A stretch of 58,649 nucleotides of DNA from Candidatus Omnitrophota bacterium (GCA_030650425.1 JAUSED010000001.1:1-58649); one strand, 5' to 3'. Positions 8,456 through 14,828 are shown, counted from the first letter of the stretch. The notes: generated by a model not told the origin, from the sequence alone. Program-made: numbers and translations.

Positions 8456-9754
8456 ATGGATTTATTTAGCGAAGATAAGAAAATAGACTTGCGTAAGCTA
8501 CCCTTAGCCGTGCGTATGCGGCCAAGGAGTTTGGATGAATTTAGCGGACAAACCCATATTTTAGGCAAGGGAAAGCTTTTGCGCCGGGCAATCGAGGCAG
8601 ACCGTTTAAGCTCCTTAGTTTTATTCGGCCCTCCGGGAGTAGGTAAGACTTCTCTGGCTTGGTGCATTGTTAATTTAACCCAAAGCCATTATGTAGCGCT
8701 TAATGCCACTACCTCCAATGTCGAAGAACTAAGGAAGGTTATCTCTAGCGCAAAACAAAAAGCAGCCAATACCTCCAAAAAAACCATCCTTTTTATCGAC
8801 GAGATCCATCGTTTTAACAAGGCCCAGCAGGACGTCCTCCTGCCGGATATCGAGTCCGGCAATCCCATATTAATTGGGGCCACAGTACACAACCCATTTT
8901 TTAGTATCGCCTCTCCGCTTTTATCGCGCTCGCTGGTCTGCGAATTGAAATTTTTAAAAGAGAAAGAAATACTGGCAATTTTAGATTCAGCCCTCAAAGA
9001 TAATGATCGCGGACTGGGAAAATTAAAGGTGAACGCGGATAAAAAGGCGTTGGAATTTTTGGCTAAAACCTGTGAAGGGGATGCCCGTCGGGCACTCAAT
9101 GCTTTGGAGGTCGGCATTTTAACCACGCCAAAACCCAAGGAAGGTTCGATCAATTTTAATCTGGAGGTAGCCGAGGAATCCATCCAGAAAAAAGCAGTGG
9201 TTTATGACCAGGATGAAGACGCGCATTATGATACTGCCTCGGCATTTATTAAATCTATGCGCGGCTCTGATCCGGACGCGGCTATTTATTGGATGGCTAA
9301 GATGCTTTATTCCGGCGAAGATCCGAGGTTTATCGCCCGCCGGGTGTGCATCCTGGCAGCCGAAGATGTCGGGAACGCGGATCCTTTGGCCTTAGTTTTA
9401 GCCAACGCGGCATTACAAATTTCAGAATTTGTGGGTATGCCTGAGGCGAGAATACCTTTAGCTCAGGCGGTGATCTATGTGGCCAGCGCGCCAAAATCCA
9501 ATGCCAGCTATTTAGCCATTGACAAAGCGCTTGCTGACATAGAAAATAAGAAAGTTCAGGAAGTCCCGGACCATCTTAAGGATACGACTGCTGATGCCGA
9601 GGCCTTGGGCCACGGTAAAGATTATAAATATGCTCATGATTACCCGGGGCATTACGTAAAACAAAAATATACCCGTAAGAAAGTCCGTTACTATGAGCCG
9701 ACGACAATTGGCTATGAAGCAAAAATTAAAGAACGCTTGGATAAAATAAAATGA
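8456..9754 (+). CDS. rarA: Replication-associated recombination protein A (AAA+ ATPase RarA/MgsA)
   Basis: [22 protein letters not shown], Walker [26 protein letters not shown], MgsA C-terminal region ([25 protein letters not shown]). Confidence 0.9.
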
Positions 9755-12700
9755 ATCTATTAACAATATTTTCGGTAATTGGGGGGAGTTTGGTGGCTTT
9801 TGCTTTGATTGTGGCATTTTTGCCTAATACTAAAAGTCCGGCTTCCAAGCCAAAAAAGAAACCTGCTCCTAACCCAAGGGATCCTATTGCCGACCTTAAG
9901 GATAGAAGGATCGCGGGACTGGAAGAAGAATTAAAAAGTTTAAGAAGCGAGCACGATAAGATTAAATCCGAACATAATGGGGGAAAGGCTAAGTTTCAAG
10001 AAGCGATAGACAAGCACGAACAGATGGAAGGAGAACTAAAACGCAGGCAGGATTGGGTGGCGGCGTCGGAAGAGATGCTCAATAAAGTTAAGGCAGAGAA
10101 TGCCGAGCTAAAGAATAAATTCACGGCTAAAGAAAAAGAGCTACAGGATGAATTTACCAAGAACGTCAACTCTGCGAGAGAAGCTAGGGAGTTAAGCGAT
10201 AAAATTAAGGCGCTGGATCAGTCCGTAAAAGAAAAGTCCGAACAAATAGAGATTCAGCGGCATCAAATAGAAAAAAATATTAAGGATATTAAGGCCCAAG
10301 AGGCCGTAATTACGGAATTTCAAAAGAAGGAAAAGATCAGCGAGTGGGTGCCTAAGGCCGAATTTAATAAATTAAACGAAGAATACACTGAGTTGGAAAA
10401 AGAATTTGAACAAAAAGATGAAAAATTACGGATTTTTAGCGAAGAGATTACGCATTTGAAAAAACAACTTACAGAAGGAGCAGCAGATTTAAATAAACCG
10501 GTTGTCGAAGAAAAACCTCAAGAAGAAATTGTCGAAGAGGGGCCTAAAAAAGAACCGGTGAAAGAGCAGCAGGCCCCTGAAATAATAATAGAGCAAAAGA
10601 CGGATGAACCTAAGTTAGAAGAAAAGCCTGAGGTTAAAGAAGAGCCGCCAGCTCAAGAAGAAGCAATAGCCAAAGAGGAACCCAAGCCCATACCTAGATA
10701 TCCGTTGGAGAAAACCCGCAACATCGGAATAATGGCGCATATCGACGCTGGCAAAACCACTACTACCGAGAGGATTCTTTTCTACACCGGTAAGTCGCAT
10801 AAAATAGGCGAGGTGCATGAAGGCGCGGCAATTATGGACTGGATGAAGCAGGAGCAGGAGCGCGGAATTACCATTACTTCTGCGGCGACCACTTGTTTTT
10901 GGAAAGATCATCGTATCAATATCATCGATACCCCCGGGCATATAGATTTTACGGTGGAGGTCGAGCGTTCCTTACGCGTTTTAGACGGAGCAGTAGCGGT
11001 TTTCTGCGCTGTCGGCGGGATCGAGCCGCAATCCGAGACAGTCTGGCATCAATCCAATAAATACAATGTTCCGAAGATCGGTTTTGTGAATAAGATGGAC
11101 CGCACCGGCGCGGATTTTTACGCGGTCTTAAAAGGGATCGATGAGGACTTGGGAGGCAACGCCATTCCCATCGAGATACCTTTGGGCGCCGAAGAAAATT
11201 TTAAGGGGGTAATTGATTTACTGGAAATGAAAGCTTATTTTTATGAAGAAGAATCGCAGGGCAAAGAATACCGTATCGAAGAAATTCCGGCGGATTATCT
11301 GGAGCAGGCCAAAAAATACCGGCATATGATGGTGGAGAAGGCGGTTAATTTTGACGAAGCTTTAATGAAAAAATATCTGGAACAAGGCGAAGGTTCAATT
11401 GAAGTCCAGGAATTAACTAAGGCTATCCGTCGGGGAACGGTGGCAAATAAAGCTGTGCCAGTACTCTGTGGGGCGGCTTTCAAGAATAAAGGGATTCAAA
11501 AACTGTTGGACGCGGTAAATATGTATCTACCTTCGCCTTTAGACCTGCCTCCCATTAACGGACACGATGTAGATGATAAGGATAAAGCTATTGGGCGGCA
11601 TGCGGATATCAATGAACCTTTCACAGGTTTAGCTTTTAAAATACAGGCTGATCCGCATATGGGGAAATTAGTTTATCTGCGGGTTTACTCCGGATTTTTA
11701 GTTACCGGAAGCTATGTTTTAAATTCCACTAAGAATAAAAGAGAGAGAGTGGCGCGGATAGTGCAGATGCACGCTAACCAGAGAGAGAATATTGAATACG
11801 CCTTTGCCGGAGATATTGTGGCAGTGGTGGGGTTGGGTGATACGGTCACCGGTGATACGCTTTGCGATCCGGCAAGCCCCATTCTTCTGGAAGCAATTAA
11901 GTTCCCTACCCCGGTCGTATCCTTAAGTATCGCGCCCAAGAGCCGCGCGGATCAGGATAAGCTCGGGAAAGGCCTGGCCAAGCTCACCGAAGAAGACCCG
12001 ACATTCTTAGTACATACCGACGAGGAAACTAAAGAAGTCGTTTTAACCGGAATGGGAGAGCTGCATTTAGAGATTGTCGTGGATAGACTAAAGACAGAAT
12101 TTGGAGTGGAGGCAATAGTTGGCCAGCCTAAAGTCGCTTATCGGGAAACCATACTGGAAAAAGCCGAAGGCGAAGGAAAATATATCAAGCAGTCCGGCGG
12201 GCGCGGGCAATACGGCCATGTTCGATTAAGATTAATCCCTGCTCAGTCAGGAGAAGGTTTTGAGTTTATCGACAGTATCAAAGGAGGGGCGATCCCGCGT
12301 TCATTTATTCCGGCAGTGGAAAAAGGGGTAATTGAGGCAATGCAAAACGGAGTGTATGCAGGATTCCCGGTGGTGGATTTGAAGGTGGAGTTATATGACG
12401 GCTCATTTCACGAAGTAGATTCTTCAGAACTAGCTTTTAAAATGGCCGGGATATTTGGTTTTAAAGAGGCATTTATGAAGGCTTCGCCGATTTTACTTGA
12501 ACCGTATATGTCTTTGGAAGTAGTGACACCGGAAGAATATATTAATGCCTGCATCGGTTATATCTGTTCGCGCCGGGGCAAGGTTCTTGGGATGACGGCC
12601 AAGGGTAAACAGGAAATCGTCTCAGCCGAAGCGCCTTTATCCGAAATGTTTGGTTACGCTACCGCCTTCCGCTCTCTTTCCAGCGGCAGGGCCAACGCTA

Positions 12701-12789
12701 CGATGGAATTCTCCAAATATCTGCAAGTCCCGCAGGAGATTACCCAGAAGCTCATCGAGGAAAAACAAAAGCAAAAGAAAGATTCGTGA
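9751..12789 (+). CDS. fusA: Elongation factor G family GTPase with an approx. 318-aa N-terminal extension (TM helix, coiled coil, P/E/K-rich linker)
   Basis: Residues from about 319 are canonical EF-G ([53 protein letters not shown]). Residues 1-25 are hydrophobic ([24 protein letters not shown]). Residues about 50-240 are heptad-like K/E-rich and about 250-315 are PE/K-rich. One uninterrupted frame; the ATG overlaps the rarA stop (ATGA). It is not in an rpsL-rpsG-fusA-tuf context, so it is probably a paralog. Confidence 0.75.
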
Positions 12790-14828
12790 AAAATATTGAT
12801 TACAAAAATGAATTGAATCCGGCGCAGCTGGCGGCTGTGGAATCAGTTGAGGGCGCGTATTTAGTGATTGCCGGCGCAGGAAGCGGCAAGACGCGCGTTT
12901 TAGTGCACCGGGTGGCTTATCTGGTGGAAAAAGGAATAAAACCGGAAGAGATCCTCCTGCTTACTTTTACCCGCAGGGCTTCTGAAGAGATGCTCCGTCG
13001 GGCAAGCTCACTTTTGGATGAGCGCTGCTCAAGGGTTTCTGGGGGTACCTTTCATGCCTTTGCCAACGCGACCTTAAGGAGATATGCTAAGGTATTAGGG
13101 CTCTCCAATAACTTTTCCATCCTTGATCAATCCGATGCCGAAGATACAATCAATCTTATCCGCACGCAGATGGGTTTTAACAAGACCGAAAAACGTTTCC
13201 CCCGGAAAAAAGCGATTCTGGAGGTAATCTCTAAAAGCGTGAATAAGTCCGCAAAATTAGAAGATGTTATCTATGATGAATATCCGCAATTTCTGGAATT
13301 TAGCGCAGAGATAAAAAAAATCCGCGAGGAATACTATAAATACAAACTTGCCAAGTCTCTTTTGGATTACGATGACCTTTTAGTTTACCTGAAAAAACTT
13401 TTAACTGATCATGAAGAAGCACACTTGTCACTTTCTCGGAAATACAAGTATATTATGGTCGATGAATATCAGGATACCAATAAATTACAGGCCTACATCG
13501 CTTGCTTACTGGCTTCCGAGCATAAAAATATTATGGTGGTTGGAGACGATGCCCAAAGCATTTACTCTTTTAGGGGCGCGAACTTTAGGAATATTATGGA
13601 TTTCCCGCAGCTATTTAAGAATACTAAAATTATTACTCTCGAGGAGAATTACCGCTCCACCCAACCTATTCTGAATCTGACCAATGAAGTAATCCGTATG
13701 GCCAAGGAAAAATTTGAAAAGAATCTTTACACCAAGAAAAAAGGGGAGAAGCAGCCGGTCTTTATTGACGCCGAGGATGAAAACGCTCAATCCCGCTATA
13801 TCGCGGATAAGATTTTGGAATTAAGGGAAGAGGGAGTAGAGTTAAAAGATATGGCGGTTTTGTTTCGCTCAGGCTGGCATTCTAATGATTTGGAAGTAGA
13901 GCTGGCTAGCCGCAATATCCCTTTTGTCAAATATGGCGGCCAGAAATTTGTCGAGGCAGCGCATATTAAAGACGTGATTTCCTACTTACGCATTGTCTAT
14001 AATACAGGCGATCAGGTGAGTTGGCTGCGCGCGCTGCTTTTAATTCCCGGCATCGGCCCAAAGAGCGCCGAAAAAATAATCAGTTCGTTTTCAGACGAGA
14101 AAAATAAAGCTGGCGCGGCAAGCGCCCTGAAAAAAGAAGAAGTAGTTAAGCTTCTTCATATCTTAAAAGAGATGGATCTTAGCCAACAAGAACCGGCTAA
14201 GATCATTGAAATATTTTTGGAATACTATCAGCCTTTGCTTAAAAACAAATATGATGATTTTCATAAGAGGATCAATGACTTAGATTCACTCTTACGCATT
14301 GCCTCACGCTATAAATCCCTAGAGCAATTTTTAACTGATATGGCCCTTGAGCCTCCGGAGCGCAGTCTGGCTGAGGCGGGCTTAAAAGATAAAGATGATT
14401 CCACGCTTACGCTTTCGACCATCCATTCTGCCAAGGGTTTGGAGTGGCATACGGTATTTCTGATTTATCTGGCTGAAGGCCATTTACCCTCTTATCTATC
14501 TCTGGAAGATGAAGAAGGGATCGAAGAAGAACGCCGGCTTTTCTACGTTGCTTCCACTCGGGCAAAAGAAAATCTATTTTTACTTAAGCCGCACCTTGAT
14601 CGCTCTCCTAGAAGTATGATGGACGGAGGCGGGCCGGTTTTGACACAGGTCTCGCGTTTCTTGGACGAAGGCAGGATTATGGATAAATTTGTGCGGGTAG
14701 AAGACACTGGGGATGAATTCGATGCTGGCTGCGATGAATTTACAGAAAAGCTAGGCCAGAAGGGCTCATCCGATAAAGAGTTTTTAAAAATGATGCAGGA
14801 GTATTTCCGCGATAAAGAAGATTATTAG
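12786..14828 (+). CDS. UvrD/PcrA/Rep-family ATP-dependent DNA helicase
   Basis: Walker [12 protein letters not shown], motif [34 protein letters not shown]. The GTG start overlaps the EF-G stop. Confidence 0.88.

Follow-up and report, generated by a model that had tools for sequence, protein, structure and literature searches.

Does a bacterium keep one of its elongation factors G on a stalk that is fixed in the membrane? This question is raised by a gene in a stretch of 58,649 nucleotides from a Candidatus Omnitrophota bacterium (GCA_030650425.1 JAUSED010000001.1:1-58649; called the window here), which is part of a genome of 1.8 Mb in 12 contigs that is 94% complete. The gene (called long EF-G here) runs on the plus strand from 9751 to 12789. 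The open reading frame listing and the translation show one frame of 1012 amino acids with an ATG start. A first-pass annotation had described this frame as a hydrophobic helix, a P/K patch, a K/E-rich helical part and a P/E/K spacer followed by EF-G, and both the translation and the Pfam matches reproduce that order. It had also stated that it knew of no described membrane-tethered EF-G, and our literature search found none. The Omnitrophota literature that we checked makes no mention of an EF-G fusion. In Atkinson's survey of translational GTPases (PMC4342817), the terms "membrane", "transmembrane", "coiled" and "N-terminal extension" never occur. The architecture is real, conserved and apparently unpublished, and it joins a variant of a known factor to a new stalk family. 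We are highly confident of this architecture and of the evolutionary history given below. The overall reading of an active EF-G on a membrane stalk, with architecture, history and function taken together, seems to us slightly on the probable side of even. Its functional part, taken by itself, is a tentative proposal that may well be wrong.

The EF-G part comprises residues 317–1012 plus the stop codon (10699–12789, plus strand) and is complete with five domains. Residues 321–595 form the G domain, and domains II, III, IV and V span residues 623–706, 718–791, 793–912 and 915–1000, respectively. The Pfam families GTP_EFTU, EF-G_D2, EFG_III, EFG_IV and EFG_C all match above their cut-offs between residues 321 and 1000. 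The EF-G equivalog model TIGR00484 scores 1060.6 bits (cut-off 659.4) and is matched from position 5 to 690 of 691. The models for EF-G2 and EFG II stay below their cut-offs (NF009377, 518.8 against 890; NF058620, 497.1 against 1000), and so does the tetracycline ribosomal protection model NF012153 (379 against 775). When the AlphaFold2 model was searched with Foldseek, the best matches were ribosome-bound and free EF-G, with an E value of 3e-86 over approximately 690 columns and 49–57% identity. The GTPase motifs, the catalytic histidine of switch II and both tip loops of domain IV are present, including GSFHEVDS. The five domains, the G1–G5 motifs and the domain IV tip motifs are shared with canonical EF-G (FusA, EFG I) of T. 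thermophilus, E. coli and S. aureus (4V90, 7N2V, 8P2F). The long gene differs from it in four respects: an N-terminal extension of 316 residues is present, the locus is not in the str operon, the genome has a canonical copy as well, and the G5 motif is GAAF.

Long EF-G had been suspected to be a paralog outside the str operon, and this proved right. It sits between rarA and a uvrD-like gene, and a canonical fusA of 700 amino acids is found on contig C3 in the order rpoC-rpsL-rpsG-fusA-tuf (1050 bits). With this canonical fusA and a third EF-G-like gene in the genome, long EF-G is an additional copy. Sequence identity of the fused EF-G is 57.8% with E. coli EF-G and 54.3% with its own canonical sister. 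The fused clade differs from the canonical clade at only six positions, all mild or conservative substitutions, and by two indels of one residue, which gives no sign of sub-functionalisation. Over the same genome pairs, identity is 67–91% for the fused EF-G and 65–92% for the canonical one, and the two evolve at about the same rate. The intact motifs, the few substitutions and the canonical-like rate argue for a working translocase and against a degenerate ribosome-binding relic. The third gene encodes 651 amino acids on the minus strand (G000 contig C8:32217-34163; locus L003:1468-3423). It passes the cut-off of the NF009381 subfamily (838 bits), narrowly misses that of TIGR00484 (638.6 against 659.4), and is approximately 42% identical to long EF-G. 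It is matched in two separate stretches and may therefore have a shortened G domain; a similar gene occurs in nearly every relative searched.

Pairs of EF-G genes are known from other systems, namely EF-G1A and EF-G1B of P. aeruginosa (PMC3832671), spdEFG1/2 and mtEFG1/2 (PMC3150367), and EF-G2 of Bacteroides (PMC6989115). As in these, the second gene stands away from the str operon beside a canonical one, and as in the P. aeruginosa pair, both copies are of the EFG I type. The paralogs of those systems are soluble, whereas long EF-G is predicted to be tethered and is almost undiverged at functional sites (the six mild substitutions).

What, then, precedes the EF-G part? The anatomy of the extension was derived from an alignment of 79 homologs and the AlphaFold2 model, whose mean predicted local distance difference test (pLDDT) score is 72.6. 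In the extension, the model contains three helices, made of residues 2–22 (transmembrane), 48–196 and 202–242. The predicted transmembrane anchor comprises residues 1–24 (9751–9822, plus strand, like all segments of the extension). It is followed by a disordered P/K-rich basic segment adjoining the membrane (residues 25–47, 9823–9891; pLDDT below 50 for residues 25–48), in which the sequence is weakly conserved and the charge is conserved. Residues 48–196 (9892–10338) form an unbroken coiled-coil helix of approximately 21 heptads with conserved motifs around W102, KEKELQxEF(135)TKNV and H171. The helix is interrupted at SEWVP (residues 197–201, 10339–10353), where S197 and W199 are invariant and the heptad register shifts. 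A second helix (residues 202–242, 10354–10476) is the best-conserved part of the extension. The two helices would measure approximately 22 nm and 6 nm at 0.1485 nm per residue, and the helical stalk has 195 residues in total. Between the stalk and the EF-G lies a disordered acidic leash rich in E, P, K, A and V (residues 243–316, 10477–10698; pLDDT below 50). Its composition is 25% E, 16% P, 12% K, 10% A and 8% V. The leash varies in length from 52 to 120 residues, has a conservation of 0.32 among the 79 homologs, and shows no conserved cleavage motif in them.

The best 19-residue Kyte–Doolittle window at the N-terminus scores 2.57, and the range in 19 orthologs is 2.0–3.15. All 37 fused forms that were reconstructed from the N-terminus begin with a hydrophobic helix. 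No lysine or arginine precedes this helix in 18 of the 19 orthologs (L020 has one), and three to eight follow it. By the positive-inside rule, such a distribution places the N-terminus outside and the remainder of the protein in the cytoplasm, and we infer a single-pass signal anchor with N-out/C-in topology. The order of the parts also fits TolA and TonB, in which an N-terminal anchor, a helical K/E-rich region, a Pro-rich spacer and a C-terminal domain follow one another. If long EF-G had the N-in/C-out orientation of these proteins, the EF-G fold would be exported and lie in the periplasm. The charge pattern predicts the opposite topology, and no TolA or TonB family of Pfam matches at E values up to 10. 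Moreover, the periplasm has neither ribosomes nor GTP, yet the GTPase and ribosome-contact motifs are conserved. We therefore regard a periplasmic EF-G as highly improbable.

The stalk itself has a very regular periodicity. The family-averaged hydrophobicity of residues 50–196 peaks at a period of exactly 3.50, with a power of 100 compared with 3.4 at a period of 3.6 and a median of 3.4. All indels in the stalk are of seven residues, and three sequences carry seven-residue insertions at one site. By this pattern, residues 50–196 are a canonical coiled coil of approximately 21 heptads. The stalk is probably parallel, and a dimer or a trimer. A single N-terminal transmembrane helix followed by a long K/E-rich helical rod is also present in the N-terminal region of RNase Y, in EzrA, in subunit b of ATP synthase and in domain II of TolA; the rods of RNase Y, EzrA and AtpF are cytoplasmic. 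The stalk differs from all of these in that it has no Pfam, NCBIfam or PDB match and carries motifs of its own, namely EW(V)xK, KEKELxxEF(S/T)KNV and SEWV(P/S)KxE(F/Y)xxL.

The extension had been called a tether. The description as a coiled coil with a P/E/K spacer stands, but a passive spacer it is not, for it holds a conserved domain of approximately 145 residues that is an independent gene in some relatives. Mean column conservation is 0.71 at residues 95–240 and reaches 0.90 at residues 201–220, which equals that of the EF-G part. Eleven residues are invariant across the 79 sequences (W102, E128, H171, S197, W199, K202, F205, L208, E211, E216 and E232). W102, F135, H171 and W199 occupy g, e and f positions of the heptads, outside the a/d core, and this suggests that they form a putative binding surface. 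The short motif (D/E)WVxKxE was seen twice in the stalk, at 10051–10068 and 10339–10359, approximately 97 residues apart. The pair may reflect an internal repeat, or the same binding site may be present twice.

Searches of the extension (residues 1–316) by sequence or profile gave no family match in Pfam (E values up to 10), NCBIfam or the PDB. The sub-threshold matches are coiled-coil noise (SMC, keratin and Lpp; keratin, GCN4, Lpp and tropomyosin in the profile search). Among 1.84 billion representative proteins, the stalk domain has 85 matches. The exceptions are a few tails that look frameshifted and fragments whose start lies within the stalk; all others start with a transmembrane helix. 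Every match that is long enough reaches the G domain of EF-G, and most of the short ones are fragments at contig ends. Judged from these searches, the stalk is a conserved protein family confined to Omnitrophota and not a spacer.

Is the fusion itself genuine? The first-pass annotation had asked whether orthologs keep the extension in frame, and they do, in 37 genomes and 165 protein clusters. The 37 related genomes were read directly and hold open frames of 993–1158 residues, with the whole frame conserved at the protein level. A search of 40 relatives placed the best match in open frames of 1006–1137 residues in about 20 genomes. When residues 1–316 were searched against 5.8 billion proteins, 165 clusters at 90% identity were obtained. 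Among the clusters listed, 120 of 120 carry EF-G Pfam domains; almost all are approximately 1000 residues long, and they are named only "elongation factor G". Nonsynonymous divergence (dN) is 0.13–0.27 in the stalk core and 0.05–0.12 in the EF-G, with synonymous divergence (dS) saturated. Every segment, the junction region included, is evidently under purifying selection. A misassembly, a frameshift or a read-through that joins a small membrane-protein gene to fusA could be suspected, since some genomes do encode the two modules separately. The in-frame junction recurs in the 37 genomes and in assemblies produced independently (JGI, ENA, NCBI and Logan), some of whose contigs span 0.3–1.2 Mb. 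Together with the selection on the junction, this leaves an artefact next to no chance. In one ortholog, L022 (G013:C86:7904-10999), a single TAG stands in frame after the stalk and before the EF-G part. Recent pseudogenisation or splitting of the gene, recoding or a sequencing error could explain it.

Could translation begin inside the frame? A TTG at 10705 (Leu319) had been named as the only conceivable internal start. It is indeed the sole start-type codon shortly before the G domain if Met328, located in the first β-strand, is set aside. Of 20 orthologs, only 4 have a start-type codon at this position. An ATG is conserved only within the first strand of the G domain. An internal start at 10705 was accordingly rejected as a conserved feature. 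Two weak σ70-like matches (9/12) were noted, at 10558–10586 in the leash (with an extended −10 TG) and at 10706–10733 at the start of the EF-G. In two NCBI records of metagenome-assembled genomes (P0052 and P0120, "Candidatus Omnitrophica bacterium"), the protein is annotated from an internal Met at MLNKVKAEN, which corresponds to M109 here. This start drops the transmembrane helix together with the N-terminal third of the stalk.

These observations bear on a different role for the anchor, namely as a reservoir. Inactive or spare EF-G would be stored at the membrane, and soluble EF-G would be obtained by proteolysis of the leash or by internal initiation. Membrane storage has been reported for LepA in E. 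coli and offers a comparison. The leash is long, disordered and variable and would thus be accessible to proteases; the two promoter-like sites are compatible with a shorter product, and free paralogs in two genomes (G039 and G063, described below) indicate that a soluble form is viable. Against this, the EF-G boundary has no conserved start codon, the leash has no visible conserved cleavage motif, and the promoter-like sites in the region (19) are near the number expected from shuffled sequences (11.7, standard deviation 3.1). We consider storage and release quite unlikely.

How did the two parts come together? The stalk domain is present in 90 of 401 sampled Omnitrophota genomes. It is found in 57 of 59 genomes of the window's family, in 15 of 17 of family f32, and scattered across about ten other families. 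Three states occur: the fused gene, which is common, the stalk alone and the paralog alone. The stalk-alone genes encode 220–370 residues and have no EF-G within 5 kb. They were seen in the 12 genomes fetched, which are six species of the genus g35, G097, G031, G026, G030, G352 and G027. A genome-wide search of five stalk-alone genomes (G167, G312, G198, G031 and G026) found canonical EF-G only. A free paralog is present in G039 (L039:2826-4919). It has 697 residues and begins with MARTIELEK, an ordinary EF-G N-terminus. Another unfused paralog is present in G063 (L077, G063:C6:21178-23250), and the free paralogs are 66–68% identical to the fused EF-G. In G039, the paralog gene stands after two radical-SAM-like genes. 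A stalk gene of the stand-alone kind is also present in this genome, on a different contig, but it is interrupted. The occurrence of separate genes in relatives had been put forward as a point that would speak against the fusion; it is borne out partly and in form only, and the findings point in the opposite direction. Where the modules are separate, either the stalk occurs with no second EF-G or the free paralog lacks a stalk, and the fused form is the common one.

Gene order helps to interpret the stalk-alone state. In the window, rarA (MgsA-type AAA+ ATPase; 8456–9754, plus strand) ends with a TGA that shares the sequence ATGA with the start codon of long EF-G. The UvrD/Rep-type helicase gene (12786–14828, plus strand) begins with a GTG at 12786 that overlaps the stop codon of long EF-G. 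Both overlaps had been pointed out before and are real, at 4 nucleotides each. The adjacency of rarA and long EF-G is retained in family f1 and in distant relatives, and the order pheS-pheT-rarA-[long EF-G]-(cyclophilin)-uvrD, all housekeeping genes, is conserved. In g35 (six species; L028:4307-5862 of G312, L027, L029-L031 and L040), the order is pheT-rarA-stalk-cyclophilin-uvrD, compared with pheT-rarA-long EF-G-cyclophilin-uvrD in the fused relatives. The g35 open reading frame holds the stalk plus the leash in 293–345 residues and overlaps or abuts the gene of a signal-peptide cyclophilin. With the synteny intact, the whole EF-G-coding part was cleanly excised in place.

Phylogenetic trees are consistent with this. 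The EF-G tree was built from 64 sequences and rooted on E. coli. Support in the Shimodaira–Hasegawa-like approximate likelihood ratio test (SH-aLRT) is 99 for the canonical Omnitrophota clade and 100 for the paralog clade. Within the latter, the 37 fused EF-Gs (37/37) group together as a single clade (SH-aLRT 82), with both free paralogs at the base of the paralog clade. As E. coli is the sole outgroup, an old duplication and an ancient transfer of the paralog are not separable in this tree. In the stalk tree, the g35 stand-alone group and G097 are nested within fused lineages, which indicates that the EF-G part was lost secondarily at least twice. This tree has long branches, and the branching among the deep stand-alone forms (G031, G026, G030, G352 and G027) is not settled. 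The existence of free stalk genes and of free EF-G paralogs implies that the long gene is a fusion of two independent genes. An ancestral membrane-anchored stalk protein was joined to an ancestral free second EF-G. The simplest history starts with the second EF-G and the stalk as free genes, passes through a single fusion, and continues with vertical spread and repeated loss of the factor.

Since the EF-G part was lost and the stalk was retained, the tethered factor is dispensable and the stalk has its own function. As the stalk persists alone, a scaffold centred on it is a serious rival to the view of a tethered translocase. In such a scaffold, the coiled coil would be the primary unit and bind a partner through its invariant Trp, Phe and His residues, and the EF-G would be a docking handle that brings in ribosomes or polysomes. 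Several findings agree with it. The stalk without EF-G keeps its conserved motifs in the 12 genomes, the invariant W102, F135, H171 and W199 lie outside the core, the stalk changes in length only by indels of heptad size, and the stalk domain occurs only alone or fused to EF-G among the representative proteins. There is also a eukaryotic parallel. Kinectin (KTN1) anchors the eEF1B complex at the endoplasmic reticulum (ER; PMC13231004), and p180 (RRBP1) promotes the assembly of polysomes on the ER (PMC3326322; see also PMC12768868). Like both of these, long EF-G would have an N-terminally anchored long coiled coil that holds elongation machinery or ribosomes at a membrane, and like p180, it has a basic region adjoining the anchor. 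The eukaryotic proteins differ in that they act non-covalently and on an exchange factor (eEF1B) or on ribosomes, not on the translocase.

Other findings speak against the scaffold. A docking handle needs no full catalytic set, yet the GTPase motifs and the domain IV tip loops are canonically conserved. Nor do the stand-alone stalk genes have conserved neighbours. These neighbours share nothing. By Pfam they include radical SAM, beta-CASP, EPSP synthase, tetratricopeptide repeat (TPR), aminotransferase, Fpg, deacetylase and nitroreductase proteins, and by eye, from translations, a response regulator and an HtpX-like protease. The Pfam and PDB searches showed no homology of the stalk to kinectin, p180 or any other family, and the likeness to KTN1 and RRBP1 is an analogy only. 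On balance we judge the scaffold unlikely.

The explanation that we prefer is a single polypeptide with an active EF-G at its end. Its N-terminal helix would cross the inner membrane once, with the N-terminus outside. The cytoplasmic part would consist of the basic segment, a parallel coiled-coil stalk of approximately 28 nm, an acidic leash of approximately 75 residues and an EF-G capable of catalysis. Each stalk would be expected to carry two or three EF-G heads. The tethered EF-G would act like an ordinary EF-G in GTP-dependent translocation and perhaps in recycling that depends on the ribosome recycling factor. Its action would be limited to ribosomes within reach of the stalk, roughly 25–60 nm under the membrane. 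It would supplement the soluble canonical EF-G of the str operon and is not essential. In all of this, we infer the topology, the oligomeric state, the catalytic activity and any benefit of tethering from sequence.

Several points weigh against this explanation. The EF-G part was, by the trees and the gene order, deleted at least two times (in g35 and G097) with the stalk kept, so that the tethered factor is dispensable. The G5 motif is GAAF (GAAFKNKG) and not GSAF across the fused clade, a Ser-to-Ala change. Given the promoter-like matches in the extension, a shorter product may be made as well. Nothing in the neighbours pheST, rarA, cyclophilin and uvrD points to a function at the membrane. 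Omnitrophota cells are approximately 0.2 μm across (PMC10066038), and we estimate that a tether of 30–60 nm would sweep most of the cytoplasm of such a cell, so that "localisation" may restrict little. The first-pass annotation had proposed that translocation, recycling or rescue is localised to the membrane, and this proposal is weakened by both the repeated loss of the EF-G and the cell geometry.

A bolder extension can be built on the stalk family, and we think it very unlikely. The stalk would be a membrane-anchored oligomeric "ruler" that holds the EF-G heads, and through them polysomes, approximately 25–30 nm beneath the inner membrane. The result would be a cortical translation zone, a covalent and independently evolved counterpart of the kinectin and p180 of the rough ER. 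Very long surface proteins are typical of the phylum, and such a zone might be linked to their co-translational export.

EF-G is among the most conserved and best-studied proteins, and it is regarded as diffusing freely and visiting a ribosome once per codon. Domain-architecture surveys that rely on records starting at an internal Met, such as P0052 and P0120, would miss the anchor. By the "Rosetta-stone" logic of the fusion, the stalk family is tied to translation. The fusion also provides an experimental handle, as stalk, leash and factor are separable and could be used to test how tethering affects the kinetics of translocation and recycling and the recruitment of ribosomes to membranes. 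A naturally occurring and widely conserved EF-G with a covalent membrane stalk would challenge the assumption of free diffusion.

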